A stretch of 21,765 nt of DNA, taken from the NCBI GenBank assembly GCA_031414955.1, contig JANOQV010000077.1, positions 1-21,765 on the forward strand, given 5' to 3'. This document shows, one piece after another, positions 1,583-21,765 of this stretch. The translations under genes were made by a program, and so were the position numbers. This DNA comes from Pedosphaera sp. (GTDB lineage Bacteria; Verrucomicrobiota; Verrucomicrobiia; Limisphaerales; SIBH01). Below the pieces are notes generated by a model. The model did not search any database. It had not been told where the DNA came from and worked only from the letters and a program-made list of their open reading frames with translations. Position 1 is the first letter of the stretch, and each line of letters opens with the position of its first letter.

Positions 1583-1674
1583 ATGGTCAGGCACCACCGT
1601 GCGACACCTCTGTGCCAGGTGGAATCAACACACGGTGGGCGATGCAGGGCATAGGCACGGGAGTCACCAAGCCT

Positions 1675-2247: not shown

Positions 2248-2436
2248 GACGAAACGCTAGGCGAGGCGCCCGGGAGTGTCGAGCCGTGAAACCGTCACGC
2301 GCGCGTGTCTGGGCTGTGCCAGGGAACGGCGTGAGCGGCCCGGCTGGAGGGGTTCCATCGCCCAGGTCGGCGCGGAAATGAAAATACTGCGTGCCGCCGC
2401 GAATGTGATTACGATGCGGCGAATCTCAAGGACGAC

Positions 2437-5400: not shown

Positions 5401-5649
5401 GAAGCGCGCCTGAGCGACGCCTTCCGCCGCGTCTGCGCGCGTCCGCCTTCGGCGAGTGATCTGAACATTCTGCGGGGCAGTCTTGACCGGGCGCGGGCGG
5501 AGTTCCGCGCCGAACCGAAGCTGGCCGAAGCTTTCGTGAAATCGGGAAGCAGCCCGCGCGACGCCGCGCTCGACCCGGTGGAACACGCCGCCTGCGCGGC
5601 GGTGTGCCTGGCGATCTACAACCTCGATGAAGCAATGACGAAGGAGTGA
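2437..5649 (+). CDS. Planctomycete cytochrome c / DUF1549 / DUF1553 (PSD1) domain protein
   Basis: Signal peptide; heme motifs CFHCH and CAQCHDHKYDP; NPIDAFI, LLRRVTLDLIGLPPT, YGERMA..WLD.ARYADS, HPLTARVQVNR.W, PSHPELLDWLA, YRRSLYTFWRR. AAGGA RBS upstream. Confidence 0.95.
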   Translation: MSHRTVNNSVWRPRARTSWSAVVAVGLLTFGMALAAQAATARSNPASLAAEVRPILSANCFHCHGQDPKTRKAKLRLDTIEGQRTNDVVVPGKPDQSELIKRIFTTDPDDLMPPADSHRTLEAAQKELLKHWVAQGAPWPSHWAFAAPVRPELPKLKLSAGMNPIDAFIRARLAQEKLKPSPEADQTTLLRRVTLDLIGLPPTPEEADAFLADHKPGAYERLVDRLLASPHYGERMALPWLDAARYADSNGFQQDGDTHQYVWRDWVVRALNNNLPFDQFTIEQLAGDLLPSATLEQKIATGFNRCHLLNGEGGAIAEEQRNVVVFDRVDVTATTWLGLTMACAQCHDHKYDPITQRDYYRMFAYFNNVPESGVPGGSGQYRIADPAQPVGTEVELAKLKALEDASASAKTAVEKIERSPEIGVAQTAWEASAWGETNTYWSNLEAMELTSRGGAILDKLRDDSILVSGKNPDQDTYTLVLTNSLSVLTGLRLETIPDGRFPAKGAGRSDSGNAVLTDFAATVGGRRISFQRAIADYTQQGFSPANVFDADKGSGWAFFPDTASPHALILQTASPVELKPGDALTIVLDFQFKKPPQHTLGRFRLSATTNASPTGRAPLSSNLLAILQTPVAARKSNDAKLLRGHFLSNSPPATLLAARATVAKQKKEFEDYRARLPRVMVMSDAKPRQTKILERGNYEQPRDPVFAGTPGFLPPLPPDAPTNRLGLARWLVSPEHPLTARVQVNRAWQTFFGQGLIASSENLGTQSERPSHPELLDWLAVEFRESGWDVKRLHRLLVTSATYKQSSRFAVPGAQSSVAARRAGAKTGQHVSPPTEHASLPASDLKRALAVDPNNRLLWRGPRFRLPSLLLRDVALASSGLLEARLGGKPVYPYQPKDIWDGLSITKERDFTYPQSKGADLYRRSLYTFWRRTVAPGNMFDASVRQTCQVRPSLTSTPLHALTMLNDPTWVEASRALAERVMKASAQDEARLSDAFRRVCARPPSASDLNILRGSLDRARAEFRAEPKLAEAFVKSGSSPRDAALDPVEHAACAAVCLAIYNLDEAMTKE

Positions 5650-5653
5650 GCCT

Positions 5654-7120
5654 ATGAATCCGCTGTTTACCCGCGACCTCCAATTCACCCGCCGCGAATT
5701 CTTTGGCCGGGGTGCCACTGGCATCGGCGTGGCCGCGCTGGCGGGTTTGCTCGGTCCTGATCTGTTCGGCGCGAACACGCCCAGGACTCCGGGTTTGCCG
5801 CCGCTGCCTGGCCTGCCGCACTTCGCGCCCAAAGCGAAGCGCGTGATCGTGCTCTGGCAGGGCGGTGCGCCCTCGCAAGTCGATCTGTTCGATCACAAGC
5901 CGGGCCTGGCCAAACGACGTCTGGAAGAATTGCCCGAGTCCGTCCGCGCCGGCACGCGGCTTTCCACCATGACGGCGAGCCAGAAGAAGTATCCGATTCT
6001 CCCGGCCATCAAACCCTTCAAGCAGTACGGCAAGTCCGGCCAGTGGTTCTCCGAAATGTTGCCGCACATCGGCTCCATCGCCGACGACATCTGCGTGGTG
6101 AAGACGATGCAGACCGAGGCGGTGAATCACGCGCCGGGCGTCACGCTCTTCATGACGGGCAGCCAGATTCCCGGCCGCCCGAGCATGGGGGCGTGGGCCA
6201 CCTACGGACTGGGCAGCATGACGAGCGAGCTGCCGGCCTTCGTCGTGATGACCTCGGCGGACAAAGGCAAAACCTGCGGCCAGCTTTTCTACGATTATTA
6301 CTGGGGCAGCGGCTTCGTGCCCTCGAAGTATCAAGGCGTGCGCTTCCGCAGCGAAGGCGAGCCGGTGCTGTATCTGAAGAATCCCGACGGCATGTCGGCC
6401 GGCTTGCGGCGGGGGCTGCTTGACGACATCGCCGCGTTGAATCATCGCCATCTGAATGAATTCGGCGACCCCGAGATCGACACCCGCATCGCACAATACG
6501 AGATGGCCTACCGCATGCAGACCAGCGTGCCCGACCTGCTCGACATTTCGCAGGAGCCGCCCTCTGTCCTCGAGCTCTACGGCCCGGATGTGCGGCGCAA
6601 AGGATCCTTCGCGCGCAACTGCCTGCTCGCGCGACGGCTGATCGAGCGCGGCGTCAGCTTCGTGCAACTCATGCACTCCGGCTGGGACCAGCACGGCAAC
6701 CTGAGCACGCAGCTCGAAGTCCAATGCCAGGACACCGATCAACCCAGCGCCGCGCTGGTCAAAGACCTCAAGCTGCGCGGCCTGCTCGAAGACACCATCG
6801 TGCTCTGGGGCGGAGAATTTGGCCGCACCGTCTTCGTGCAGGGCGACATCAACAACAAGAACAGCCACGGTCGCGATCATTTCGGCGCCTGTTACAGCAT
6901 GTGGCTGGCGGGCGGCGGCTTCAAAGGTGGCACCAGCTTCGGGGAGACGGATGAGTTCTGCTACAAGGTCGTGCAGGATCCGGTTCATGTGCATGACTTG
7001 CAGGCCACGATCCTTCACCAGCTCGGTATTCATCACGAAAAGCTCACCTACCGTTATCAGGGCCGCGACTTCCGGCTGACCGACGTGCATGGACAGGTGG
7101 TGAAGGGGATCATTTCTTAA
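5654..7120 (+). CDS. DUF1501 domain-containing protein (sulfatase-like; Tat-type N-terminus)
   Basis: TRREFF Tat-like motif; AKAKRVI.L.Q.GAPSQVDLFD.KP, NCLLARRLIERGV.FVQ, GWDQH, DQPSAALVKDLK.RGLL, WGGEFGRT, GRDH, VHVHDLQATILH, RLTDVHG. Starts 4 bp after the PSD1 gene. Confidence 0.95.
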   Translation: MNPLFTRDLQFTRREFFGRGATGIGVAALAGLLGPDLFGANTPRTPGLPPLPGLPHFAPKAKRVIVLWQGGAPSQVDLFDHKPGLAKRRLEELPESVRAGTRLSTMTASQKKYPILPAIKPFKQYGKSGQWFSEMLPHIGSIADDICVVKTMQTEAVNHAPGVTLFMTGSQIPGRPSMGAWATYGLGSMTSELPAFVVMTSADKGKTCGQLFYDYYWGSGFVPSKYQGVRFRSEGEPVLYLKNPDGMSAGLRRGLLDDIAALNHRHLNEFGDPEIDTRIAQYEMAYRMQTSVPDLLDISQEPPSVLELYGPDVRRKGSFARNCLLARRLIERGVSFVQLMHSGWDQHGNLSTQLEVQCQDTDQPSAALVKDLKLRGLLEDTIVLWGGEFGRTVFVQGDINNKNSHGRDHFGACYSMWLAGGGFKGGTSFGETDEFCYKVVQDPVHVHDLQATILHQLGIHHEKLTYRYQGRDFRLTDVHGQVVKGIIS

Positions 7121-7226: not shown

Positions 7227-7455
7227 AAGTCTGGTCTTGGGACAAAAATAAACGCGCCATGCTCTGTCCAGTCTCAATCGATTGTCCGTTTCAGCAGGTT
7301 GAAGCTTTTGTGGCCGGTGGTCGGATCAGTTCCAATGAAGCTCCCTTGCTCCCACTCCAGATGTCGCGAACTCATGAATTGAAGCGCGGCACATTCGCGC
7401 TCTTCCGCAGGGAGGCTTCTCCCAGTCTTCGGTAATTTTGACAATGACGAGCATC

Positions 7456-8637
7456 ATGAAATCTCAAAAACGCAAATCCATCGCGAGTTTCAACTTGGCC
7501 AAACCCGGCGCCTTCGTGACCTGTGCGCTGGGTAGTTTAGGGTTGTTTCTGAGCAGTCCGGAATCCCACGGGCAGGAGTATGTGCCGACCACCGGTTGGC
7601 GTAAGTTGTTCGGCTCCAAGCAATGGAATCCAGGACCGCCAGCGGCCGCGACCCCGCCAGCCACTGCGACCCCGCCGAGCACTGCGACCCCGCCGAGCAC
7701 TGCGGCCCCGCCGAGCACTGCGGCCCCGCCGAGCACTGCGACCCCGGTGGTTGCTCCGGCCGAGTTGCCGGATTCGCCCAAGCTTGAAACTGGGCAGGGG
7801 AAAGGGAGAAAGCATGAGATTTCAGTAGCTGCTGACTTCATGCTCGGAGAAGGCGATGTGACCGTGCCGCTTGGTTATTCCTTGAAAGAATCGGTGCCGG
7901 GCCAGATTCAACAACAGGCCGCCTCCGCCGCTCGCAGTTCCATCTATTATGGCGGTTCCATTACCTACTCCTACGGGCAGGCTTGGAATGTCGATCTTTC
8001 TTCCGTGCAAGGCGATTCTTCCGGAAGTGTTTCCTTCCCGGCCTTTACGCCGGCCCAAAACGGCGGCGAGGACTTCAAGACGAAGTTCAGCATTGAGGAT
8101 CAGTGGTATCAGGCTTACCTGCGTTACAACTTCACGGAATGGCTGCGCGGCTCGAAGTTCTCGCTCTACCTGCGCGGCGGCGTCTCTTATGTCACGGCCG
8201 ATTTGGCGGTGGATGCAATCGGAGCAGGGGAGGGCAATTACAGCCAGACGGACGCGACCACGGATATTCTGGGCAACCTGGGTTTTGGCGTCCGTTATGC
8301 GCTTTATACCTCCGCCTCCAGAAAGGTTCGCCTCGCACTGTCAGGCGAAGGGGAAGGCTTTTACGGGTTTCGCAACCAGGAGAGTCGGGAGACCTTGAGC
8401 GAAACGGATGTGGATTTTGTCACTTCCAAGATCGAGAACACTTTGTACGGCGGCATTGGCCGGGTCACATTGCGCATGGACTATCTGTTTGGAAAGTCTG
8501 GCGCCTGGAAGGCCTACGGAGAACTCGGGGCGCAGGTTCGCTACACCCTGATTGACTATCCCGACGCCACCGGTTCCACCCCCAGCGAGTTGCTGTGGGG
8601 GCCGTATGCCAAAATCGGATTGCGTTACAGCTTCTAA
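7456..8637 (+). CDS. Putative outer-membrane beta-barrel protein with N-terminal Pro/Ser/Thr/Ala linker
   Basis: Signal peptide (..SHG|Q), PPSTA repeats, about 10 amphipathic strands, and a C-terminal BAM-type signal YAKIGLRYSF. Alternative starts at 7438 and 7444. Confidence 0.82.
   Translation: MKSQKRKSIASFNLAKPGAFVTCALGSLGLFLSSPESHGQEYVPTTGWRKLFGSKQWNPGPPAAATPPATATPPSTATPPSTAAPPSTAAPPSTATPVVAPAELPDSPKLETGQGKGRKHEISVAADFMLGEGDVTVPLGYSLKESVPGQIQQQAASAARSSIYYGGSITYSYGQAWNVDLSSVQGDSSGSVSFPAFTPAQNGGEDFKTKFSIEDQWYQAYLRYNFTEWLRGSKFSLYLRGGVSYVTADLAVDAIGAGEGNYSQTDATTDILGNLGFGVRYALYTSASRKVRLALSGEGEGFYGFRNQESRETLSETDVDFVTSKIENTLYGGIGRVTLRMDYLFGKSGAWKAYGELGAQVRYTLIDYPDATGSTPSELLWGPYAKIGLRYSF
7651..7740 (+). 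repeat. Intragenic 18-bp tandem repeat x5 encoding (T/A)PP(S/A)TA
   Basis: Units at 7651, 7669, 7687, 7705 and 7723 with consensus RCCCCGCCGAGCACTGCG; degenerate unit at 7633-7650. Confidence 0.95.
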
Positions 8638-8657
8638 GCTCATTTGTTGAAACCGTT

Positions 8658-11600
8658 ATGAAAACATTCCAGCTTTCCATTCTTGGCTTCCTGGCCACCG
8701 CAGTCGTTTCCACCGCTGCTTCGACCTTGCAGTTCACCAACATCTCCGTGCGTATTAACGCCCCTGGGAACAGCCTCTACGGAGTGGCTTATGGCGAGGG
8801 CCGGTTCATGGCCGTGGGAACCAACAGTCGGGTCCTGGTGGGAAACTTCGTGCCCGGCCAGTCGTTTATTGATCCGCAATTCTGGACCATTAACAGCGCC
8901 ACGGCTTCTGGGAAAAAGAAGCTGGGGCTGCTGTCTATCGCTGCGAGCAGTTCCAACCTTTTCGTGCTCAGCGGCGAAGGGAACCGTTACTTCACCACCA
9001 CCGACGGGACGAATTTCGTGGATGAAAACCGAAAAATCTTCAGTACCAGGGCCGCCGTTTCAGGTCTGGCCTTCAACGGTAATACTTTTGTCGCCGTTCC
9101 CAAGGCTCCGCAAATTGGCTTCGCTCGGTCTGATGGCACGGCTCACGTCTTGAGGTGGGCCGAGGCTGGATCCATTGTGGATCTGTCTTATCCCGAATCA
9201 TTCCGGGCGGTGACTCCCTATCGGAATGGTTTTGCCGCTTGTGGCGTGTTCGGAGTGGTCCGGACCTCGGGTAATGGCAACGAGTGGACGCTGGCGCGGA
9301 ATGGCGGGGTCGGAGAACCGGACTTGCTCGGGATTGCTTCGGACGGGGAGAACACTCTGGTTGCGGTGGGCAAAACCGGACGGAGCGCCGTCAGCGGCGG
9401 GGTCATCATTTCCCGGCCCGATACGCAAAACGGCGGGGTGAAGTTTTCCAAAACTTTTGATGGCAAGGGTTTCGGCCCACTGAGCGCCGTCGCCTTCAAT
9501 GGGTCTGAATTTGTCGCGGTTGGTCGGAGGGGAGTGATCCTCGCCAGCACGACCACTCCGAACGGTCGGGCGTGGAGCAAGGTGGCCGTAACGAACTTGA
9601 CGCAAGACCTGCAGGGAGTGGCTTTCGCCACGAATGGTAATCTCCGGGGGGTTGGCATCGTGGTGGGGGCCAAACGAAGTGATGGCCGCGCCACCGTGCT
9701 ACTCGTGGGCGAACCGCCCAATGCTCCGGTAGTGATCACGAATGCCACGAATGTTTGTGCCGGTGAGGATCGCTCGATGATCGTGAGCATCACCAACAGC
9801 GTTGGCCCTGGATTGGTGGCGGTGGAGTGGTTTGACTTGGATGCAGGCTCATCGATTCTTCATGGAACCATCAAAGGCGATTGGAGATTTGAACTCTCTA
9901 ACACACTTTCCGAATTCACCTTGCGACCGGTGTTGACCACAGGAAATCTCACGGATCTCAACCAGCCTACCACCTTGCGAATCGGAGCCCGCGCCATTGA
10001 TCTCCGTACCGGTTTTACCGGCACCACCACCCGGTTGGACCGGGTTATTTTCCCGCGCCCGACCTCCTTGGTTTCGGGCCACACGAATATCTGCAACGGT
10101 CAACCGGTCAGCATCCGTGCCGACTTGACGGGCCTTGGCCCGTGGCTCGTCTCCTGGACTTCCAACGGGACGGTTCTTGCCCCCGTGCCCAGTGCGACCC
10201 GCGTGGCACTGCTCAATTTCACTCCCATCAACCCGGAGTTAAACACGTTTTCTCTCCATGAATTTAAGGTGGCCGCGCTGGTGGATTTGGGCTCGGCCCT
10301 GCAATGCGCGGCTAATGTGTTGAGCAATGATTTGGTCGGCACGGCCATTGTGACCAATTTCCCGCGCCCGACGGCCTTGGTGTCCGGGAGTACGAATATC
10401 TGCAACGGAGAACCGGTCACCATTCGGGCCGAGCTGACTGGGATCGGGCCGTGGCAAATCACCTGGGCTTCCAACGGATTTCTTCTTCCAGCGCTCGCAA
10501 GCTCCAGTCCTCTGGCGCTGCTCGGCACCACGCCCAGCAGCCCCGAGTTGAACGCGCCTTCCCTGCACGAGTACCGGGTCGCGGCGTTGGTGGACTTGGG
10601 TTCAGCACTCCAGTGTGTGGCCAATGTTTTGAGTAATGATCTGAGGGGTACGGCCATCGTGACCAATTTCCCGCGCCCGACGGCCGTGGTGTCCGGCACC
10701 ACGAATATCTGCAACGGTGATCCAGTCACCGTTCGGGCCGATTTGACAGGGATTGGGCCGTGGCAAGTCACTTGGGCTTCCAATGGCGTGGCCCTTCCGG
10801 CGGTCTTCAACGCCGCGCCGCTCGCGTTACTCGAGGTTGCGCCGATCAGCGCGGAGTTGAATGGATTCTCGCTGCATACTTTTGGGGTCGCGGCGTTGGT
10901 GGACTTGGGCTCAGCCCTGCAATGCGCGGCCAATGTGTTGAGCAACGATTTGCGGGGCACGGCCATCGTGACCAACTTCCCGCGTCCCACCGCGGTGGTG
11001 TCCGGCAGCACCAATATCTGCAACGATCAGCCGGTCACCATCCGGGCTGACTTGACGGGGCTTGGCCCCTGGCGCGTCATCTGGACTTCCAATGATCTGG
11101 CTCTGCCCGCGATCACAAATGACACGCCTCTAGCGCTGCTAAATGTCATCCCCATCAGCCCTGCTTCGAACACCTATTTCCTCCATGAATTCAGGGTTGC
11201 CATCCTGGTGGACTTGGGATCAGCCTTGCAATGCGCGGCCAACGTGTTGAGCAACGATTTGCGGGGCACGGCCATCGTGACCAACTTCCCGCGTCCGACT
11301 GCGGTGGTGTCCGGCAGCACCAATATCTGCAACGGGCAGCCGGCTTTGATACAGGCGGAATTGACGGGGATTGGTCCGTGGCAAATCACCTGGGCTTCGA
11401 ACGATGTGGTGCTGCCCGCTCAAACGGTTTCGGGAGTGGAGCGTCCTTTCGTCGCCGTCCGGACGGAGACGCCCATTAGTCCCGAACCAAACGCAGTCTT
11501 CCTCCACCACTACCGGGTGGTGAACTTGGTAGACTTGGGTTCCGCAGTGAACTGCCCGGCGACCTTGGAGAATCTGACTGGCACCGCCACTGTGACCAAT

Positions 11601-13367
11601 TACCCACGGCCCACCGCGGTGGTATCTGGCAACAAGACGGATTGTGAAGGGGGAGTGGCCGATGTTCAGGCCGAGCTGACCGGCATTGGTCCCTGGCAAA
11701 TCACCTGGGCCTCCAACGGCGTCGTTCTTCCACCCCAAACCGTGCCCAGTGGATCCTCTCCGGTGATTCACGTTCGCACTGAGACGCCCGCCAGCCTGGA
11801 TCCAAACGCGGTAACTTTGCATCGCTTCACGGTGACCAACCTGGTGGATATGGGTTCTGCTCTGGCCTGCGCGGCCAACTCTGGGAGCAATGATTTGCGC
11901 GGCAGCGCCCTGGTCACGGTCAATCCCCGGCCCACCTCGACCATCATCAGCGGCAGTACCAATTTCTACAACCTCCCCTTCAAGAAGAACGAGCATGACA
12001 AAGACTTCGACATCACGGCCGTGGCCCAACTGACCGGCGTCGGGCCATGGAAAGTGACTTGGTCAGACGGGGTTACTGATCCGGTGGAGGTGACCCACAA
12101 CAGCAGTCCGGCCTCTCATGAATTTACGGTGAAAGTGTTCAAGGCGACCCTGCCGACCAATTTCACCTTTTCAGTGATTGCCTTGTCGAACAGCGCCACC
12201 ACCTGCCAGGCCGGGTTGAGCGACTTGAGGTCAAACGCGGTGGCCAGCTTCAATCCGCTCCCGGCTGCCTTGGTTTCTGGCCGGACCAACCTGTGTGCTG
12301 ATAATCTCAGTGACTTCGAGATCGAGGTCGATTTGTCAGGTCGCGGCCCTTGGACCAACATTGTCTGGTCGGATGGATTCACCAATGTGCTCGAGACCAA
12401 CAGTTTCGTGCGCACCATCCCGGTCAGCTATTTTTCCAACTTGACCTCCGCCTCCTCCAATTACGTTTTCTATATCACGAATCTGCACGATTCTTTCACC
12501 AACACGGCGAACACAAACCTCGACCTATTGGGAGTTGCCCAACTGACCATCTATGCTGTCGCCACCAACGCGCCGGTCAGCCTGGGTAATATCACAAACT
12601 GTGACAATGAAGTGGCCGAGCTCAAGGTAAGCGTCGCGGATGGGTTCACGGTGGACTGGTTTGAGGATGCTGGTCAAACGGTGCTGCTGCTCCCGGGTTC
12701 GACGAATTTGGCGATCAACTCCGACGTGGGGACGAATGTGTACTGGGCCGCCGTTCGTTCCATCGATGCACCCGTCAGGTTGTGCTACTTCGCGGTCAAC
12801 ACGCCAGTCACAAATGTGGTCATTCCGGTGCCCGCCACGGGAGCGACCAGCGTCGGTAATGTGACCAGCCTGACCAATATCCCGGTGCAACTGGAAGTCG
12901 CAGTGGATGCAGGTTTGACCGTCGATTGGTTTGCCGACGAGGCCCGAACCTTGCCCATCTTGAACGGACAAGGAACGACTACCGTGCATGATATTCTGGC
13001 CAGCGAGGCCGGAGCGACGAACTACTACGCAGCGGTGCGCTACGCCTCCGCGAGTGAACCGTTCTGCTACTTTCCGATCAACACCATCGTTACTCATGTG
13101 GCGACCAATCTTCCGCCAACCCCACCCATGCTCGGCAGCGCAGCGAGTGGAACTCCGGTTCTGGGTCTGACCAAATCCGGAACCGCTTTGTCTCTGCAAT
13201 GGACGGGGGATTTTGTCCTTCAGAAATGCACGGATCTGGCCACCGGCAAGTGGGTCAATGTCCAGTCTGGCACGTCCGGTGTTATGAACACCTGCACCTT
13301 ACCGATCCCAAGCGCAGCTTCCAGCGGGAGCGCCTTCTTCCGACTGGTTCCCGGCAGTTCCAAGTAG
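8658..13367 (+). CDS. Large secreted surface protein/adhesin: beta-propeller + tandem Ig-like repeats + putative C-terminal sorting domain
   Basis: Signal peptide MKTFQLSILGFLATAVVSTAAS; propeller blades (VAYGEGRFMAVG, LAFNGNTFVAV, VAFNGSEFVAVG); 8 repeats of about 103-110 aa; 2 Ig_7-like units (TVDWF..., YWAA/YYAA); C-terminal LQW...LQ..TDL...W...FFRL. Confidence 0.88.
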   Translation: MKTFQLSILGFLATAVVSTAASTLQFTNISVRINAPGNSLYGVAYGEGRFMAVGTNSRVLVGNFVPGQSFIDPQFWTINSATASGKKKLGLLSIAASSSNLFVLSGEGNRYFTTTDGTNFVDENRKIFSTRAAVSGLAFNGNTFVAVPKAPQIGFARSDGTAHVLRWAEAGSIVDLSYPESFRAVTPYRNGFAACGVFGVVRTSGNGNEWTLARNGGVGEPDLLGIASDGENTLVAVGKTGRSAVSGGVIISRPDTQNGGVKFSKTFDGKGFGPLSAVAFNGSEFVAVGRRGVILASTTTPNGRAWSKVAVTNLTQDLQGVAFATNGNLRGVGIVVGAKRSDGRATVLLVGEPPNAPVVITNATNVCAGEDRSMIVSITNSVGPGLVAVEWFDLDAGSSILHGTIKGDWRFELSNTLSEFTLRPVLTTGNLTDLNQPTTLRIGARAIDLRTGFTGTTTRLDRVIFPRPTSLVSGHTNICNGQPVSIRADLTGLGPWLVSWTSNGTVLAPVPSATRVALLNFTPINPELNTFSLHEFKVAALVDLGSALQCAANVLSNDLVGTAIVTNFPRPTALVSGSTNICNGEPVTIRAELTGIGPWQITWASNGFLLPALASSSPLALLGTTPSSPELNAPSLHEYRVAALVDLGSALQCVANVLSNDLRGTAIVTNFPRPTAVVSGTTNICNGDPVTVRADLTGIGPWQVTWASNGVALPAVFNAAPLALLEVAPISAELNGFSLHTFGVAALVDLGSALQCAANVLSNDLRGTAIVTNFPRPTAVVSGSTNICNDQPVTIRADLTGLGPWRVIWTSNDLALPAITNDTPLALLNVIPISPASNTYFLHEFRVAILVDLGSALQCAANVLSNDLRGTAIVTNFPRPTAVVSGSTNICNGQPALIQAELTGIGPWQITWASNDVVLPAQTVSGVERPFVAVRTETPISPEPNAVFLHHYRVVNLVDLGSAVNCPATLENLTGTATVTNYPRPTAVVSGNKTDCEGGVADVQAELTGIGPWQITWASNGVVLPPQTVPSGSSPVIHVRTETPASLDPNAVTLHRFTVTNLVDMGSALACAANSGSNDLRGSALVTVNPRPTSTIISGSTNFYNLPFKKNEHDKDFDITAVAQLTGVGPWKVTWSDGVTDPVEVTHNSSPASHEFTVKVFKATLPTNFTFSVIALSNSATTCQAGLSDLRSNAVASFNPLPAALVSGRTNLCADNLSDFEIEVDLSGRGPWTNIVWSDGFTNVLETNSFVRTIPVSYFSNLTSASSNYVFYITNLHDSFTNTANTNLDLLGVAQLTIYAVATNAPVSLGNITNCDNEVAELKVSVADGFTVDWFEDAGQTVLLLPGSTNLAINSDVGTNVYWAAVRSIDAPVRLCYFAVNTPVTNVVIPVPATGATSVGNVTSLTNIPVQLEVAVDAGLTVDWFADEARTLPILNGQGTTTVHDILASEAGATNYYAAVRYASASEPFCYFPINTIVTHVATNLPPTPPMLGSAASGTPVLGLTKSGTALSLQWTGDFVLQKCTDLATGKWVNVQSGTSGVMNTCTLPIPSAASSGSAFFRLVPGSSK
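10050..12555 (+). repeat. Eight intragenic tandem domain repeats (309-330 bp)
   Basis: Unit starts at 10050, 10359, 10668, 10977, 11286 (309-bp period), then 11601, 11922, 12252. Consensus FPRPTAVVSG.TNICNG.P..I.A.LTG.GPW..TW.SN...LVDLGSAL.C.AN..SNDL.GTA.VTN. Confidence 0.93.
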
Positions 13368-13972: not shown

Positions 13973-14896
13973 ATGCACCTCGAACTGAGCGAGGAGTCTG
14001 CTTGGGCCAGCGGCGTGGCTGCTCGGCTGCGCGTGTTGCAGGCCAATGGTTCCGAGGCTCCGGCCGCAACGCAGCAGGAGTTCATCACCGAAGAACTGGA
14101 GCGTGCCCTCAAGGAGGTGGTTCCTTCAAAACGCAATGCGTTTCTTCTGGCTTTAGGCGGACACTTTCCGGCCTGGCTGGTCGCACCGGCTGGAGACCAG
14201 GTCTCGGCGGCGAAAGCCGAAATCATAGAAGACACGCCTGAGCGCCGACTGGAGAGCCTCCTCCAGGTGGCTCCGGAACTGACTCCGGAACAGCGGCTCA
14301 AGTTCGCCGCGAAACTCAAGGCCGCCGGTTTCGTTGTGGTGGAGGAGAGCAAGGCCTTGCCGGCCGCGCCCGAACTGGAGAAAGCTTTGGGGGGCAGCCT
14401 GCCGCAATTGGACGCCGAGCGCGCCGTGAAGCTGCTGGCCCTGACTTCCTCGTTCGCCCTGACCTTGGAACAATTGGTCTGGAATCTCTGGAAACAGATC
14501 GCCCAGAAGTCCATGGTGCGTCGTGACTCTGGCCCGGCCAGCGACATGCGGCTGCTGATGCGCCGCTACGTGGCCGGGGATTCCGAGGTTTCCGCCCAGC
14601 AGATAAATCAAATCATTGAGCAGTCGCGCAAGTTGACGGCCGGGCTGCTCATGGCCATGGGCGGGGTCGGGCCGGAATTTGCCAAGAAATTTCAGGAGCG
14701 GTTCGTGCCTCACGAAATCGAGGAGCTGGCCCGCATCGAGAAGAAGGTGATGGAGACGCTGGAGAAGGCGTGCTGGAGAAAGTACGGTGAGATCTACAAG
14801 GATTTTGGCAGCGAGGCGGCCATTGACAGCCTGATTGAAGAAGCGGTGGTGCGGTACGCGGAGAAAGTGATGCGTGGCCAGCAAACCAGCGCCTGA
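13973..14896 (+). CDS. T6SS-associated hypothetical protein, helical; C-terminus resembles the Fha/TagH C-terminal domain
   Basis: Ends 5 bp before tssK; no signal peptide or lipobox. C-terminal RF.P..IE....K.CW.KY..IY.......I......Y pattern. Start could be 13913 or 13916. Confidence 0.75.
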   Translation: MHLELSEESAWASGVAARLRVLQANGSEAPAATQQEFITEELERALKEVVPSKRNAFLLALGGHFPAWLVAPAGDQVSAAKAEIIEDTPERRLESLLQVAPELTPEQRLKFAAKLKAAGFVVVEESKALPAAPELEKALGGSLPQLDAERAVKLLALTSSFALTLEQLVWNLWKQIAQKSMVRRDSGPASDMRLLMRRYVAGDSEVSAQQINQIIEQSRKLTAGLLMAMGGVGPEFAKKFQERFVPHEIEELARIEKKVMETLEKACWRKYGEIYKDFGSEAAIDSLIEEAVVRYAEKVMRGQQTSA

Positions 14897-14901
14897 AGAA
14901 C

Positions 14902-16281
14902 ATGGACGCACACATTCACTGGCACGAAGGGTTGTTCCTTCAGCCGCATCATCTGCAACGCATGCAGCGATCCCTGCGCGAACTGGTCCTCGCAGATCGC
15001 AAGCTGGCCTGGAACCATCCCTACGGCGTGATCCAGGCGCATGTTTCCCGGGATGAACTCGAGAACATGCGCGTGCGCTTCGACCGCCTGCGCGTCATCA
15101 TGCCCAGCGGGTTGGAGGTAAATTTCCCCGACAACGCCGAACTCCCTTCGCTGGACATCAAGCAGGCTTTTGCCAAGGGGGCCGGAGCTTTTCGCATCTC
15201 GCTCGGTGTGCCCCTCTGGTTTAACGCCCGCGCCAACACGGTGCGCCAGGGCGAGGATGTGGATTCACGCGTCAAGCTGCTCTACCGCGTGGCCGAAGCC
15301 GAATGCACCGACGAGAACACGGGCGAGAATCCGAGGCCCGTCCAAGTGCGCAAGATCAACGCCCGGCTCCTGCTGGAAAATGAAGACACCGCCGACCTGG
15401 AGGTGATTCCGCTGCTTCGGATCGTCCGCGGCACGGCCGGTCAGGTGGGCGTGCCTCAGCAAGACCCCGAGTATGTCCCGCCCTGCTTGATTTTGAGCGG
15501 GTCCAACGTGCTGCGCGAACTGATCGGCGATCTCGTGGCCAACGTCGAGGCCAGCCGCAAGGCGCTGGTGGTGCAGGTCACGGGCGGAGGATTCAGCGTG
15601 GACACGATGCGGGGTGTCCAGTTCGAGCAGGTGATCCGCCTGCGCACCCTGAACCGTTTCAGCGCCCGGCTGCCTTCCCTGCTCCAGGCTCCGCAGGTCA
15701 CGCTTTTCACTCTTTATCTCGAGCTGCGCGAACTGCTCGGCGAACTCATGGCCCTCCATCCGGATCGCGATGACTTTGACTGCTCGCCCTACGATCATGA
15801 TCAGCCCTACATCTGTTTCCGCGAGCTATCGAACAAAATCCGGCCCTTCCTCAAGGGCGTGGTCAAGGAGCGTTTCATCCAGGTTGAGTTCAACGACGTG
15901 AACGGACTGCTCACCGCCCCTCTGACCGAGGAGCATTTCACCGCTCCCAACGCCTATTTTCTGGGCATCAAGACCAAGCAGGATCCGGTCGGCCTCGCGC
16001 GCTTCGTCGAGGACGAAGACAAGTTCAAGTTCATGCCCCAGACCCTGGCGCGCGCCGCCATCCGGGGAATCAAACTCAAGTGGGAGCGCCAGCCTCCACT
16101 TGGTTTGCCCGCTTCCTCGGATTTGCATTACTTCCGCATTGATCGCACTTCGAACGAGCGGCGCTGGGAGCAAATTCAAAAGGAGAAGCTCGCCGTCGTG
16201 GTATGGGAGGCGCAGCGCAGCGAGAACACCATCGAGCGTCAAGGCACGACCTTTACCCTCTACATGACCGCACCCAATTAG
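14902..16281 (+). CDS. tssK: Type VI secretion baseplate subunit TssK (ImpJ/VasE)
   Basis: N-terminal IHWHEGLFLQPHHLQ, YGV, IMPSG, DPEYVPPCL, LYLELRELLGEL, YDHD, PP.GLP....HYFRID...W; 459 aa. Confidence 0.93.
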   Translation: MDAHIHWHEGLFLQPHHLQRMQRSLRELVLADRKLAWNHPYGVIQAHVSRDELENMRVRFDRLRVIMPSGLEVNFPDNAELPSLDIKQAFAKGAGAFRISLGVPLWFNARANTVRQGEDVDSRVKLLYRVAEAECTDENTGENPRPVQVRKINARLLLENEDTADLEVIPLLRIVRGTAGQVGVPQQDPEYVPPCLILSGSNVLRELIGDLVANVEASRKALVVQVTGGGFSVDTMRGVQFEQVIRLRTLNRFSARLPSLLQAPQVTLFTLYLELRELLGELMALHPDRDDFDCSPYDHDQPYICFRELSNKIRPFLKGVVKERFIQVEFNDVNGLLTAPLTEEHFTAPNAYFLGIKTKQDPVGLARFVEDEDKFKFMPQTLARAAIRGIKLKWERQPPLGLPASSDLHYFRIDRTSNERRWEQIQKEKLAVVVWEAQRSENTIERQGTTFTLYMTAPN

Positions 16282-16291
16282 GAATTTTTTT

Positions 16292-16987
16292 ATGACCGCC
16301 CTCGAAGTTTGCGAACCTGTCTTCCAATACGTCTGCCGTCTCAACCGCCTGGCCCGCAGCGGGGCGGCGGCCGACTATTCGGTGGTGCGCGCGGAACTCA
16401 AAGCCCTGCTGGAAGACGCCCAGCAAAAGGCCGCTTCCGAAGTCCGGCTTTCCGCCCAGATGAAGCGGCTCGAACTGCCCTTGATGTTTTTCGTCGATTC
16501 CATGATCGCGGAGAGCGGATTGAAGTTCGCCCAGCAATGGCATCAGAACCGGCTCGCCTACGAGCGCAATGAACTGGCTGGGGACGAGAAGTTTTTCGAC
16601 CTCCTGGAAGAGACCCTCAAGGACAACAGCGACGAAGCCTCGGAGCGGCTGGCCGTCCTTTACACCTGCATGGGCCTGGGCTTCGTCGGCATGTATATTG
16701 GGCAGCCGGAATACTTGCGGAAGACCATGATGACCATTTCGCCCCGCATCCGGCATCTCATGGTGGCCGACAACACGGCCCGTCTCTGCGGCGAGGCCTA
16801 CGAAGGCGTGGACACCCGGAACCTCGTCCAACCCCCCGGTGGCCGGCTGGTCTTTCTCGGCCTGCTCTTTCTCGTCTGCTCCATTGCGGTCATCGTTTCC
16901 TACATCCTCATGTTTAACAGCTCCAAGAGCGGGTTGGCCAAATCCCTGGAGACTATCGTCAAGCGGGACGCGGCGGCGGCGAAATAA
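16292..16987 (+). CDS. tssL: Type VI secretion membrane protein TssL (DotU family), no OmpA domain
   Basis: PLMFFVDSMI, W....L, GDEKFFDLL, LYTCMGLGFVG.Y, single C-terminal TM (LVFLGLLFLVCSIAVIVSYILMF); lies between tssK and tssM. Confidence 0.92.
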   Translation: MTALEVCEPVFQYVCRLNRLARSGAAADYSVVRAELKALLEDAQQKAASEVRLSAQMKRLELPLMFFVDSMIAESGLKFAQQWHQNRLAYERNELAGDEKFFDLLEETLKDNSDEASERLAVLYTCMGLGFVGMYIGQPEYLRKTMMTISPRIRHLMVADNTARLCGEAYEGVDTRNLVQPPGGRLVFLGLLFLVCSIAVIVSYILMFNSSKSGLAKSLETIVKRDAAAAK

Positions 16988-17019
16988 GCTGCCCTGGTGA
17001 AAACACATTTTGCACGGTT

Positions 17020-20000
17020 ATGAATGAATTCAACAACTTGCCCGGCCCGGTGAAAATTGGAGCGGGCACGCTGGGCGTGGTGACCATAGGGGGCGCAACT
17101 TGGTTCATCCCCAAGAGCCAGCTATTTATCTTTCTCGGCGTGCTGGTGGTGTTGCTGGTGCTGTTTCTCGGCGGCTGGCTGCTCTGGCGGGCGCGTAAGC
17201 GACGCCGAAATAATGCCCAGATCAGCGGCGGGCTGGTCGATGACGCCCGCGCCACGCCCAAGGGCATCAGCGATCCGGCCAAGCGGGCCAAGCTGGATGA
17301 CTTGCGGAAGAAATTCCAGCAAGGCGTTCAGGAGTATCGCTCGCGGGGCAAGGATCTCTACAAGCTCCCCTGGTATGTGATTTGTGGTCCACCCGGAGCG
17401 GGCAAGACCGAGGCCATCCGCCGGTGCAATGTCGGCTTCCCGCCCGGCATGCAGGACGGACTGCAAGGCGTGGGCGGCACCGTGAACATGAACTGGTGGT
17501 TCACCAACCAGGCCGTGATTCTCGACACGGCCGGCAAACTGATGTTCGAGGAAGTCAGCCCTGGTGAAACCAGCGAGTGGCGCGAGTTCCTGACCCTGCT
17601 CAAGAAGTCCCGCACCAACTGCCCGATCAACGGCCTGTTCCTGGCCATCTCCGTGGAGGACTTGATCAAGGATTCCTCCGAGAAAATCCTGCTCAAGGCT
17701 GGCAAGATCGCGCAGCAGCTCGATGTCATCCAGCGCGTCCTTGATGTGCGCTTCCCGGTCTATGTCATCGTGACCAAGTGCGATCTGCTCGCCGGCTTCC
17801 GCGAGTTCTTCGACGACATCACCGATCCCCAGCTCCAGCACCAGATGGTCGGCTGGTCCAATCCCGAGACTCTCGACACCGCGTTCCGGCCCGAGTTAAT
17901 CGACCAGCATCTGAAGTCCGTCAGCCAGCGCCTGCGTGGCCGGCGCATGGGACTGTTGCGCGATCCGATTCCCGAGAGCACCGAGCACCGGCGCACCGAT
18001 GAGGTCGATGCCATGTTCGCCCTGCCCAACAGCCTCACATTGATCGGGCCGCGGCTGCGGCGTTATCTCGAAACGATCTTTGTCGCCGGCGAATGGTCGG
18101 CCAAGCCGCTTTTCCTGCGCGGCATTTATTTCACCTCATCCATGCGCGAGGGATCGGCCCTTGATGAGGAATTGGCCCAAGCCATCGGCGTGCCCGTGGG
18201 CGAATTGCCGGACCGGCGTGGCTGGGAGCGGGAACGGTCCTACTTCCTGCGCGATCTGTTCATGGAGAAGGTTTTCAAGGAACGCGGCCTCGTGACGCGC
18301 GCGACCAACACGGGCCAGATGCTGCGCCGGCGCCGGGCCTTGCTTTTCGGCACGGGCTTCGCCTTCGTGGCCGTCTTCTTCCTGTTCTGTTTCTTCGGCC
18401 AGCGGAAATTCAGTGAAGCCATCGGCGAGCAGGCGGGCTTTTGGAAGGCGGCGGAGACGGCCCAACCCATCGTCCGGGGCGGCAAGGATCAATCCCGGAC
18501 CGAGGCTAAGGCGGCAGACGGTTTTCCGCTCAAGGGCAGCCCCAAGCTGGGCGAATTCCACGCCCGGCTGCGCAAGCTGGCCGGCACCAAAATCAACTAC
18601 TCGGTCTTCCAGCCCATCGCCTGGATCAGCGGCGGCGATGTCAAACCCCAGGCCATGCAGCAGGCGCAGGCCAGAGTTTTCGAGCGCGACGTGATCTGGC
18701 CTTTGGTGACGGAGGCCCGGCGCAAGCTGGGTTCAGCTTCGGAGGCGACGGACACAGGTGCTTCGGCCAGGGAATCCGCTGCCTTGGCGGCGCTCGTGCA
18801 GTTGGAAGCCCGGCTCTTGCAGAAGACCAATGCGAACCCATTGTCTCGCAAGGACGCGGAACTGTTTCTGGGCAGCCTGATGCCCTTCGTGACCGAACAG
18901 GAAAGCTGGACGGTCGAGACGAATCTGGTGGCCACGATGTCCTGGCTTTACTCCGAAGGTGCTCGGGCCAATGACTGGCCGCCGGCGCAATTCGGCGAAT
19001 CCAGCCCGGGCCAAAATCGCGTCGTCGTCGCAGGGTTTCGCCGTTTGATGGAAGGAGCCGAAAAATCCGCCCAAGCCAACCAGGCCGGAGCCGCCGAGTT
19101 TCTGCTCTTGCGCAAAGCCTTCACCAATCTCCATCTCGCCGAGACCGTGCTGGTGTCCAGGATCAACACCGCCGGATCCAGTGCGGACCTTCAGACTGCT
19201 TTGCAGCCCTACAAGCCCGTCTTTACTGAATGGGAGCGTGTGCTGACAGAGGCCCGCAAGAGCTTGCTCAAGGGTTTCGATTATTCTTCCGAGTCGGCCT
19301 ACGCCACCAACGTCGATCGCAATCGCCGGCGCGTGGCCGAGTCTTTGCAGCAAGCCGGCACGGTCCTGGAGCAAAATCAGAAGCTGGCGGGGATCAGCCC
19401 CTTCAAGGAGATGGAGCAGATCGTGGGGGATACCAAGGCGAAGTTGATCCAGCAGTTGGACAAGAATTCTGAGACCGACGTGGCCGCCCAGCGATTTTTG
19501 GATCAGCGGGCCTTGGCCAATGTTTCCACCGGTGCCGTCTATCAGGCGCGGGCGGAAGTTTACCGGATGCTCTCCGAGCTCGCCCCGGTGGCCAGCGCCA
19601 AGGTCACCACCAAGTTCGATGGTTTCGCGAAGTGGCAGGCCGGTGCGCTCAAGCTGCAACAGCAATTGTCGGCGGCGGGAGTGGGACCGGAACTTGTGGG
19701 GGCGGCCAGCAATTATCTCCAGCGGATGAGCGGTTCGCTGGCCCGCGAGATGTGGTCCGATTTCGCCGGTGATGCCAGCAGACTCGTGCTGGAGCGCCTC
19801 GAGTATCCCTTGCTGCGTTTTGACCCGGCGAGCCGGCAACCGCCCATGGAGGCCGGTCAGGTTGTCGCCAAGAAGAAGCTGTTCGCGGACATTGAGGCGG
19901 ACATGCAGACGGCGGCCTTCACCAACTTGCTGGCCTTCCAACCCGGGTTGGGGTTGACAGACTTCAACAATACCTTGCGTCAGTTGCGGGAAACCGCCTC

Positions 20001-20466
20001 GGCTTTGGTGGGCGACGACGGGGCCGCGCCGGCTTGCAAGATTACGCTTCTATTTCGCAAGCCTGGCACCGCCGACAGCCAGCGCGAAGCTTGGCGTGGC
20101 AGTGCTACTCATGTGTCTTTCAACGAAAAGCGTTCCCAAGTGGACTATCTCGACATGGTGGCGTGTCAGGTGGCGATGGACCAACCGCTCGAGTTCAAGT
20201 TCTACAGCGGCAAAGACATGACGGAGAAAGAGGCGCTGCCGAACTTGTCCCTTAGCTTGGGCAGTTGGGCTGCGATCAGGCTGTTGCATGTCGAACCGGT
20301 AAATCAGGACGATGCCGGCCCGGCGCGCAAAGTTGAACGTCGGATCACGGGTGGCGACAACCAGTCCATGCTCTTTGAATTGAATTTCGCCTCTCCGCGC
20401 CCCTTGCCCAAGCTCAACACTTGGCCCACCCGCGCTTCGGTCACAAAGGGTCTCCAGATTCAATAG
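17020..20466 (+). CDS. tssM: Type VI secretion membrane protein TssM (IcmF)
   Basis: LYKLPWYVICGPPGAGKT (Walker A), WWFTNQAVILDTAG, W.EFL.LLKK.R...PING, FPVYVIVTKCDLLAGF.EFF, LRGIYFTSS, SYFLRDLF..KVF.E.GL. Three hydrophobic segments; C-terminal GSWAAIRLL. Confidence 0.93.
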   Translation: MNEFNNLPGPVKIGAGTLGVVTIGGATWFIPKSQLFIFLGVLVVLLVLFLGGWLLWRARKRRRNNAQISGGLVDDARATPKGISDPAKRAKLDDLRKKFQQGVQEYRSRGKDLYKLPWYVICGPPGAGKTEAIRRCNVGFPPGMQDGLQGVGGTVNMNWWFTNQAVILDTAGKLMFEEVSPGETSEWREFLTLLKKSRTNCPINGLFLAISVEDLIKDSSEKILLKAGKIAQQLDVIQRVLDVRFPVYVIVTKCDLLAGFREFFDDITDPQLQHQMVGWSNPETLDTAFRPELIDQHLKSVSQRLRGRRMGLLRDPIPESTEHRRTDEVDAMFALPNSLTLIGPRLRRYLETIFVAGEWSAKPLFLRGIYFTSSMREGSALDEELAQAIGVPVGELPDRRGWERERSYFLRDLFMEKVFKERGLVTRATNTGQMLRRRRALLFGTGFAFVAVFFLFCFFGQRKFSEAIGEQAGFWKAAETAQPIVRGGKDQSRTEAKAADGFPLKGSPKLGEFHARLRKLAGTKINYSVFQPIAWISGGDVKPQAMQQAQARVFERDVIWPLVTEARRKLGSASEATDTGASARESAALAALVQLEARLLQKTNANPLSRKDAELFLGSLMPFVTEQESWTVETNLVATMSWLYSEGARANDWPPAQFGESSPGQNRVVVAGFRRLMEGAEKSAQANQAGAAEFLLLRKAFTNLHLAETVLVSRINTAGSSADLQTALQPYKPVFTEWERVLTEARKSLLKGFDYSSESAYATNVDRNRRRVAESLQQAGTVLEQNQKLAGISPFKEMEQIVGDTKAKLIQQLDKNSETDVAAQRFLDQRALANVSTGAVYQARAEVYRMLSELAPVASAKVTTKFDGFAKWQAGALKLQQQLSAAGVGPELVGAASNYLQRMSGSLAREMWSDFAGDASRLVLERLEYPLLRFDPASRQPPMEAGQVVAKKKLFADIEADMQTAAFTNLLAFQPGLGLTDFNNTLRQLRETASALVGDDGAAPACKITLLFRKPGTADSQREAWRGSATHVSFNEKRSQVDYLDMVACQVAMDQPLEFKFYSGKDMTEKEALPNLSLSLGSWAAIRLLHVEPVNQDDAGPARKVERRITGGDNQSMLFELNFASPRPLPKLNTWPTRASVTKGLQIQ

Positions 20467-20471
20467 TCGTC

Positions 20472-21527
20472 ATGGGCCTCTTTTGGAAAAGCAATCCTCC
20501 CGTGTCTGGCGCTTCCGAGGCTCCGTCGTCGGCGGCCGTATTGCCGTTGCTCGTGGCCGCGTTTGGCAAGCACCCGGGCTGGGATGATCATATTGATGAC
20601 ATCGGCCTCACCACGGCGGCGCTGGTTGAGATTAAGCAGATTTTCTACCTCCACGGGATTGGCCGGCAGATTGATCTGGGCGCATGGGACGCGCTTGATG
20701 AAACGCAGCGCCTGCCCGAGTTCAAACATTTCTTCCTCTGGCGTCGCCCGACGCACTGGATGATCGGGCGTATCTGGTCTTCCAGCGATGGCAAAGGACG
20801 CACGCGCTATCCGATGGTGGTGTGCTGTCAATACGGCGGGCCGGATGGCATCGAAGCCACGCGCCGGCTGTTCCTCCCGCTGGTTGAATTGGAGCGTGAT
20901 TGCAAGTCCGCCCGGACGGCGGAGGAAGTGCGCGCCGTCCTGGGCCGCGCCTCTGAATCGTTGCGCGCCGCCGTGGAGAGCCGTGCTCCATTGCCAGCGG
21001 CTGCGGAGGATGAACGACTGCTCCGGGAGATGCCCGGCGGGGCTGGTGAGGAAGCCTTGCTGCGAGTCATTTATCAGGTGCAGACCCAGATGAGCGTCTA
21101 TGCCCGAGGAGGCACGGTACGCCTGGCCGGCAACGAAAGCCCGCGCCCGCAACAGGTCCGCGTGCCCGCCGCGCCGGAATTGCTGCTCGACTCAGTCCTG
21201 TTCTGGATGCGGTTCTTCCTGAACTATTCGGCCCGGTCGGTTCCCGTCCTGCTGGCCGCACCCGCAGGCGAGCCGTGGCTTGATGTGACTCTCGGGCAAC
21301 CGGGCGAGCACGAATTCTTTTGTCTGCGCGCTTCCCCGAAATCGCTGCCGCCCGCCAGTGAAATTCCGTACACGCTGGATGATCCCTTTCGCGTCGAGGC
21401 CCGAGCCCTCCTCGAGGCCTTCAAGAAACAGGATCCCTCTGATTTCGTGGCGGGCGAATCTTCCCGATCCGGCGTTGACCCCGGCACCCAGAGTTTTCTC
21501 AAATCCAAATTGTTTGGCCGGAGCTGA
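20472..21527 (+). CDS. tagF: T6SS-associated TagF-like (ImpM/DUF2094) protein
   Basis: FGKHPGWDDHI resembles the TagF GK.P..GDF motif; GRIWSSSDGKGRTRYPM resembles G....S.D.VGR.FP. Starts 5 bp after tssM; 351 aa. Confidence 0.72.
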   Translation: MGLFWKSNPPVSGASEAPSSAAVLPLLVAAFGKHPGWDDHIDDIGLTTAALVEIKQIFYLHGIGRQIDLGAWDALDETQRLPEFKHFFLWRRPTHWMIGRIWSSSDGKGRTRYPMVVCCQYGGPDGIEATRRLFLPLVELERDCKSARTAEEVRAVLGRASESLRAAVESRAPLPAAAEDERLLREMPGGAGEEALLRVIYQVQTQMSVYARGGTVRLAGNESPRPQQVRVPAAPELLLDSVLFWMRFFLNYSARSVPVLLAAPAGEPWLDVTLGQPGEHEFFCLRASPKSLPPASEIPYTLDDPFRVEARALLEAFKKQDPSDFVAGESSRSGVDPGTQSFLKSKLFGRS

Positions 21528-21765
21528 TCCATTGGGCCGGGCGGGCAGTAATGCGCGGCCCGCGATGCTGTAGCTGTCATAACTATGTCAGTGACTGACC
21601 AGGTTCAGGTTTGCACCGGGCTTTCCGGGTGCATCCGTACACCGTTCTTAATTAGGCGGGTTGCCAGAGTTGATCCCAATGGTGGTTGCGGCGGGCTTCG
21701 TCGAGGGCGAGCAGAGCGCGCAAGCCGGGCCGCGTCCAAAATTGTCCGGCCCGCTTGAAGCGGCA

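Follow-up and report, generated by a model that had tools for sequence, protein, structure and literature searches.

The described systems closest to the one considered here are the type VI secretion systems (T6SSs) of subtype i3 (the P. aeruginosa H1 type) and, for individual components, the TssJ/SciN/Lip lipoproteins (PF12790; PDB 3RX9, 4A1R, 3ZHN, and 6HS7), Francisella IglE (5AMT), and the Fha/TagH-TagF-PpkA module (PMC5995506, PMC6082577, PMC13584744). A TssJ-less T6SS has been described in Acinetobacter, with TslA, TsmK, and a Gly-Ser linker in TssM (PMC10564176, PMC12949010), and T6SS types iii and iv have no homologs of TssJ, TssL, or TssM (PMC8632748). The locus analyzed here is a five-gene block, X-tssK-tssL-tssM-tagF, in a stretch of 21,765 nucleotides from Pedosphaera sp. 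(the window), which is the entire contig C77 of a genome bin of 6.55 Mb in 313 contigs (95.9% complete, 5.84% contaminated). An earlier note on this DNA had described the block as TssJ-less, belonging either to a divergent subtype with a different outer-membrane anchor or to a stand-alone docking module. Our analysis suggests instead, with a probability of roughly 80%, that the block is one end of a complete T6SS split across contigs by mobile elements, and that a lipoprotein encoded on contig C184 is its working TssJ.

The system resembles subtype i3 in having TagJ, TagF-like, and Fha-like genes and a TssC closest to PDB 5N8N, which we take to be the sheath of the P. aeruginosa H1-type T6SS; it differs in that TssK falls outside the i3-like group, the putative TssJ is encoded on another contig and escapes PF12790, X lacks an FHA domain, the kinase-like protein lacks the catalytic Asp, and no phosphatase gene was seen in the stretches of C77, C101, C69, and C184 that were read. 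The gene order tssA-B-C-hcp-tagJ-E-F-G-clpV on contig C69 equals that of Ca. Thiodictyon syntrophicum. With the Acinetobacter system it shares the lack of a TssJ by the standard profile and a TagF after tssM, and it differs in its predicted TssJ-fold lipoprotein and a TssM end without the Gly-Ser linker; unlike types iii and iv, it has TssL and TssM. The core genes and TssL/TssM being present, and a TssJ fold being predicted by modeling, we class it as a complete T6SS of type i and a new variant of the Planctomycetes-Verrucomicrobia-Chlamydiae (PVC) bacteria. New in this PVC T6SS are a predicted, uncatalogued TssJ-fold family, an Fha-like X without FHA domain, a TagF-like protein with intact motifs, a kinase-like protein without the catalytic Asp, and a separate TssK clade.

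The membrane block and the C184 lipoprotein

Five open reading frames (ORFs) lie on the plus strand with gaps of 5, 10, 32, and 5 bp, in agreement with the packing described in the earlier note, and 238 bp follow the last stop codon; Pfam and NCBIfam matches bear out the naming of tssK, tssL, and tssM. The features are as follows.

13973-14896, plus strand: X, 307 amino acids (aa) from ATG, without FHA domain, the C-terminal half bearing a weak likeness to that end of Fha/TagH (homolog matches to PF20232)
14902-16281, plus strand: tssK, 459 aa, the baseplate-to-membrane connector (PF05936, E 4.4e-68; TIGR03353 above cut-off)
16292-16987, plus strand: tssL, 231 aa, a short form (PF09850, E 3.2e-21; hydropathy scan)
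17020-20466, plus strand: tssM, 1148 aa (PF14331, E 6e-59; hydropathy, motif, and fold model)
20472-21527, plus strand: tagF-like gene, 351 aa, labeled from motifs and position
21618-21626, plus strand: 9-bp target-site duplication, repeated at the insertion sequence (IS) end of reversed C101
21627-21765, no strand assigned: end of a multi-copy, ISKra4-like IS with terminal inverted repeat

TssL has a single C-terminal hydrophobic stretch (residues 178-212 in a hydropathy scan) and no OmpA domain. TssM carries hydrophobic stretches at residues 26-59 and 438-461 and a Walker A motif; its periplasmic part is divergent, and TIGR03348 covers only model positions 36-467, below its cut-off. Adjoining the K-L-M block of two relatives (L023:7526-9361 in G282 and L102:10271-12238 in G230) is a gene for a protein with a STAS-like N-terminus and a weak OmpA-like C-terminus, possibly a peptidoglycan anchor for the short TssL.

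No lipoprotein gene stands ahead of tssK within the window, as had been noted. The C184 lipoprotein was found through a relative (G202), in which the lipoprotein preceding X has a homolog on C184 at E 3e-11; it has 198 aa, with a signal peptide, a lipobox cysteine, and a mature chain of about 175 residues, and is followed by a gene for a 1062-aa kinase-like protein. C184 and C69 have a short repeat in common. The lipobox pattern occurs in 140 of 147 homologs, and PF12790 finds nothing above cut-off in this genome or 16 relatives (0/17).

The structural model of the lipoprotein (pLDDT, the predicted local distance difference test, 90; 17-row alignment) predicts a transthyretin-like sandwich whose best match is TssJ. 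Foldseek ranks 1-10 are Serratia Lip, SciN of enteroaggregative E. coli (EAEC), P. aeruginosa TssJ1, and, from membrane-complex entries, chains of TssJ size, which we take to be TssJ (E 1.4e-4 to 2.9e-3); ranks 11-12 are IglE. VIA-align gave TssJ matches with Z 10.7 (root-mean-square deviation [rmsd] 3.2, 122 aligned), 10.5 (3.3, 120), and 9.3 (4.0, 124), followed at a distance by IglE (Z 6.6) and by transthyretin (Z 5.4), the next non-T6SS chain; a Z of at least 8 was reached by 3 of 48,161 chains, all of them TssJ. The Atlas search placed a PF12790 cluster at rank 14 with a score of 0.85, which is a lead only. From this modeled fold the C184 lipoprotein is likely to be a structural homolog of TssJ, from an uncatalogued TssJ-fold family outside PF12790, and neither the label "TssJ-less" nor the proposal of a different outer-membrane anchor is supported for this genome. 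The lipobox, the length of the chain, and the association with tssK are further likenesses to TssJ, SciN, Lip, and IglE; the family differs from TssJ/SciN/Lip in that it is usually paired with the kinase-like gene rather than with tssK and occurs in tandem copies in three loci of the genus g30.

A six-row profile of the lipoprotein matches 14 of 16 TssK-positive and none of 285 TssK-negative genomes of the class (301 in total), counts that are not independent, since the profile was built from three of the matched genomes and six are from g30. In these six the lipoprotein gene is directly ahead of tssK, and in three others (G190, G202, and G282) it opens a series that continues with the kinase-like gene, X, K, L, M, and F. 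The family comprises 980 representatives (clusters at 50% identity, E of at most 0.001); of 15 members listed, 6 are named "hypothetical protein" and the others are unnamed, and the taxonomic range is drawn from genomes of the class, Atlas clusters, and three named loci, the lipoprotein alignment offering no conserved stretch usable in a locus search. The genomes of g30 measure 2.2-2.6 Mb, and 6 of 31 have a T6SS (L095-L098 and L110-L111); the three g30 loci read have two tandem lipoproteins of the family ahead of tssK, a TssM of 1387-1702 aa, and no X or TagF.

TssJ binds the C-terminal region of TssM. The model of the last 269 aa of TssM (pLDDT 86.7, 49-row alignment) has as its best match the C-terminal domain of EAEC TssM (Foldseek E 1.8e-3; VIA Z 9.7, rmsd 4.2, 209 aligned), the only chain with a Z of at least 8, the next unrelated chain being at 7.4. 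A homolog search with this region found none, and no Gly-Ser linker is present in the last TssM residues or in the 49-row consensus. TssM is thus predicted by the model to keep a fold resembling the TssJ-binding end of EAEC TssM.

Contig order and the tail genes

Because the last 139 bp of the window belong to an IS, each end of which occurs 18 times in the genome, the empty contig end is an assembly break and not the end of the locus; the length of 238 bp given in the earlier note stands. The IS ends carry inverted repeats, and fragments matching NF033572 at related copies (best E 1e-57, below the family cut-off) suggest an ISKra4-like element. Of the 18 left flanks, 16 have a single counterpart among the right flanks that shares their terminal 9 bp, and the remaining two have no partner; the 9-bp duplications pair 16 contig ends of this genome (G000) and could scaffold much of the assembly.

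The flank of C77 pairs over 9 bp with reversed C101 (the runner-up among the 18 right flanks shares 3 bp), and the flank of reversed C101 pairs over 9 bp with C69 (runner-up 6 bp). C101 encodes VgrG, a peptidoglycan-binding protein, a phosphodiester-glycosidase-like protein, a DUF4280 PAAR-like protein, and a methyltransferase, and C69 starts with the tail operon tssA-B-C-hcp-tagJ-E-F-G-clpV. From these target-site duplications we infer the chromosome order X-K-L-M-F-[IS]-vgrG...DUF4280-[IS]-tssA-B-C-hcp-tagJ-E-F-G-clpV, which would place the remaining core genes just past the contig end and speaks against the stand-alone docking module of the earlier note. A TssJ homolog is also likely to exist, on another contig rather than directly beyond the window. 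The opposite strand within the cluster encodes a class I methyltransferase that carries PF10119 and PKMT domains (L009:157-1695), and such a methyltransferase also lies beside tagF or tssA in many related loci (L115-L274).

TssA, TssB, Hcp, TssE, TssF, TssG, ClpV, TssK, TssL, and TssM are each encoded once in the genome, which also has a TssC gene with a divergent second copy, two genes for VgrG, one for a PAAR-like protein, and only one full tail operon. The tail and baseplate core and the PAAR-like protein have Pfam matches above cut-off on C69, C101, C96, and the window; ClpV owes its name to AAA domains, to its position, and to its top phmmer matches, which are annotated as TssH. The six contigs C77, C69, C101, C184, C208, and C96 are all within the tetranucleotide range of the bin. 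TssC is present in 16 of 17 genomes tested, among them all 16 with TssK.

Further genes of possible interest lie on two other contigs. C96 (L010:205-12026) carries the second vgrG with genes for pentapeptide-repeat, PAAR-Rhs, DUF2169, and LysM-like proteins and is likely an effector island. C208 encodes on the plus strand a 664-aa protein without a Pfam match (L011:3970-5964), followed by the divergent TssC-like gene (L011:5983-7386); homologs of the 664-aa protein are present in 9 of the 301 class genomes, each of them TssK-positive, often adjoining the lipoprotein or X, and the protein is a candidate new T6SS component.

In the proposed system, the C184 lipoprotein would be lipid-anchored in the outer membrane and bind the beta domain at the C-terminus of TssM, which would span the inner membrane together with TssL, and TssK would dock the TssEFG-VgrG baseplate. 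An i3-like TssBC sheath would contract and drive Hcp-VgrG-PAAR into neighboring cells along with cargo, for example the Rhs protein of C96; ClpV and TagJ would recycle the sheath.

X, the TagF-like protein, and the kinase-like protein

Neither X nor the fifth gene has a family match above cut-off in Pfam or NCBIfam. X has no hydrophobic or transmembrane segment in a hydropathy scan; PF20232 (T6SS_FHA_C) is matched by 10 of 41 X homologs at E of at most 0.05 (best 2.2e-5), and none of the 41 matches FHA families, so that X is not classed as Fha. The rank-3 Atlas cluster for X has PF20232 on 10% of its members, and the best clusters are mostly from Verrucomicrobiota. With hhalign, residues 194-295 of X aligned to the C-termini of seven reference Fha proteins (E 4.5e-4, at a probability of 33%, against E 0.01 for a reversed control); a search of 1,529 ORFs with the X profile recovered no reference Fha. 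X is directly ahead of tssK in 85 of 91 scorable loci (31 of 34 metagenome, 54 of 57 genome). The loci were fetched with the TagF pattern and include some near-copies; 62 that lack tssK and 7 in which tssK lies at the edge were left out of the count.

In the TagF-like protein, G32-K33, D39, and S104-D106-R110 are invariant columns with the same spacing as G8K9, D15, and S79D81R85 of P. aeruginosa TagF, where binding to Fha requires GK and SDR (PMC5995506). The pattern S-x-D-x3-R occurs in 156 of 156 rows, and GK-x5-D in 154 of 156, the latter not independently, as GK belonged to the search pattern. An hhalign comparison with five reference TagF proteins gave E 0.014 (controls at least 0.16); PF09867 (TagF) does not match the fifth gene, nor does any Pfam family at E of at most 0.1, and PDB sequence searches with the TagF-like proteins or profiles gave nothing under E 0.1. 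The protein is accordingly classed as TagF-like. The X and TagF profiles match an identical set of 11 genomes out of 301, and neither detects the six systems of g30. TagF-like proteins are often lengthened to about 700 or 1,500 aa (L138:9914-12076 and many loci in L115-L274), and the one extended protein scanned with a match ends in an FGE-sulfatase-like domain (E 1e-14); it would be a fusion of TagF with a membrane sensor.

The kinase-like proteins have the catalytic Asp of H-R-D replaced by Asn, Ala, or Lys in all 11 aligned, Pkinase matches are weak and found in 2 of 7 scanned, and two have a weak FGE-sulfatase-like match at the C-terminus. Given the missing Asp, control would probably not run through threonine phosphorylation. 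The arrangement recalls the Fha/TagH-TagF-PpkA module in its conserved Fha-binding TagF residues, in X at the fha position co-occurring with TagF, and in a linked membrane kinase-like protein; it differs in having no FHA domain, no catalytic Asp, and a weak homology between X and Fha. A phosphorylation-independent role in assembly has been proposed for Fha (PMC6082577), and for this reason X may keep an assembly role that TagF checks. We lean toward the view that X corresponds to the C-terminal part of Fha, minus the FHA domain that binds phosphothreonine, and that assembly requires X while TagF restrains it.

Phylogeny, alternative readings, and range

Quick trees were built with 13 plasmid references, none of them i2, ii, or iii, and 17 of the 30 PVC TssK rows. 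The 17 PVC TssK form one side of a branch (support 96 in the Shimodaira-Hasegawa-like approximate likelihood ratio test [SH-aLRT]), and an approximately unbiased (AU) test, made with an earlier FastTree already known, rejects the grouping of PVC and i3-like TssK (p 0.0014); identity to full-length plasmid-borne TssK is 20-27% in the 45 of 380 rows listed. In contrast, 15 of 17 PVC TssC rows share a fork with all six i3-like references (SH-aLRT 94, without the asterisk that marks the 96 of TssK). TssC scores 802 bits against 5N8N, 504 against the next entry, and about 392 against Vibrio VipB, and is 74% identical to TssC of Ca. Thiodictyon syntrophicum (on a proteobacterial plasmid). For TssM, 16 PVC rows lie on one side of a branch with a support of only 72 and long-branch warnings, in the same direction as TssK, while its best phmmer scores are to i3-like references. 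These sequence comparisons set the TssK clade apart from its i3-like sheath and support in part the divergent subtype proposed in the earlier note: TssK does not nest with the i3-like references, the TssM tree leans the same way, and TssC mixes with them. TssK is linked in both of its trees with the i4a-like plasmid group of Rahnella/E. coli; the link joins long branches, finds no support from TssM, and is not claimed.

Several results weigh against the C184 lipoprotein being the working TssJ of a complete system. No member of its family (0/148) matches PF12790; hhalign against eight reference TssJ proteins gave E 0.12, no sequence-level link; PDB sequence searches with the lipoprotein or its profile returned nothing under E 0.1; structural identity to TssJ is 8-14%, with query TM-scores of 0.41-0.51; and the gene sits on a separate contig of a bin with 5.84% contamination. 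Two 99% complete genomes, G061 and G230, have full T6SS clusters with TssK-L-M and no lipoprotein match even with the 148-row profile; these loci (G061:C8 386500-405200 and G230:C24 302500-330700) lack a PF12790 match as well and remain candidates for a truly TssJ-less T6SS. The link between X and Fha is likewise weak, given its 33% probability and the reversed control, and covers the last third of X; and two IS copies occupy intergenic gaps of the cluster. The lack of sequence similarity, the two genomes without a lipoprotein, and the position of the gene in G000, G115, G186, and G045, where it stays beside the kinase-like gene and both are away from the K-L-M block, would fit a system that is independent of TssJ as in Acinetobacter, with the lipoprotein and the kinase-like membrane protein as sensor or accessory and TssM reaching the outer membrane otherwise. 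We consider this unlikely, as the best fold match is TssJ, well above transthyretin, TssM retains the fold of its C-terminal domain without the Gly-Ser linker that is a feature of Acinetobacter (PMC10564176), and in the six g30 genomes the lipoprotein directly precedes tssK, with no kinase-like gene in the three loci read.

About equally improbable is that the system is complete on paper and is silent or decaying, its parts scattered and the promoters of the vgrG and tssA operons separated from them by the IS. Copies of the element do lie 99 bp past tagF, about 130 bp ahead of vgrG, and 75 bp ahead of tssA, and a genome of the same genus (G081, 96% complete, the only one searched) has no match to TssK, X, or the lipoprotein; on the other side, the core ORFs are all full length and uninterrupted by stops, and a split order also occurs in the closed genome G282, with K-L-M and tssC about 2 Mb apart. 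That the block is a stand-alone membrane/baseplate-docking module serving an unrelated tube-sheath system seems very improbable. The block moves as a unit and is away from the sheath genes in several relatives, TssK and TssC differ in tree position, and G184 carries X-L-M-F with no match to TssK, TssC, or the lipoprotein; set against this, the duplications put the tail operon of this genome into one cluster with the block, the membrane block and tail genes form one cluster in G214, G061, G230, and G045, and the genome has a single full tail operon. The reading of the block as one end of a complete T6SS with a lipoprotein of TssJ fold remains the preferred one.

The rest of the window shows no tie to the T6SS. 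At 7438-13367 are genes for a beta-barrel-like protein with a Pro/Ala/Thr-rich N-terminus and for a 1590-aa exported protein with repeats of about 100 residues and a short C-terminal tail, neither tied to the T6SS. The pair was rejected as a substitute anchor: the large protein has a match beside X in 1 of 160 loci, the barrel in none of 160, and both are absent from the loci of nine relatives. Genes at 87-7120 (DUF58/VWA, Uma2 endonuclease-like, DUF1549/DUF1553 cytochrome, and a 488-aa partner) are common in PVC bacteria and unrelated to the system.

A search of species genomes with the TagF pattern yielded 436 related stretches, of which the best 80 are mostly from Verrucomicrobiota and Planctomycetota, with two from Victivallales and few others. 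The nearest named TssK in the tree is from a Limisphaerales genome, which, with the mostly verrucomicrobial X clusters, fits the earlier assignment to a probable verrucomicrobium. We found no paper devoted to this PVC T6SS in the available parts of the type VI literature on Verrucomicrobia, Planctomycetes, Phycisphaerae, Akkermansia, and TssJ loss, outside of which are supplements and subscription papers whose genome-wide T6SS tables may list such clusters, and the available part of a 2026 review of accessory factors contains no occurrence of "Verrucomicrob-" or "Planctomyce-" (PMC13584744).

Somewhat short of an even chance, in our estimate, is the broader proposal that a so far undescribed T6SS subtype is common to Verrucomicrobiota, Planctomycetota, and Lentisphaeria. 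In it, a lineage-specific TssJ-K-L-M module, its TssJ family escaping every profile, would drive an i3-like tail, with phosphorylation-free control by an FHA-less Fha, TagF, and a pseudokinase sensor, and with a 650-residue helper of no known family. One survey put the share lacking TssJ at 27.5% of 1,096 genomes outside Acinetobacter that carry tssM and tssB (PMC10564176); if the proposal is true, part of the T6SSs so counted carry an unrecognized TssJ, and the lipoprotein profile makes it testable how many of these genomes are detection failures. For the present genome, a false "TssJ-less" case would be removed, and a profile is supplied for a large family, predicted to have the TssJ fold, that Pfam misses. 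X would be a natural Fha-like protein without FHA domain and hence a direct test of the phosphorylation-independent assembly role (PMC6082577), and the module as a whole may mark the T6SSs of PVC bacteria.

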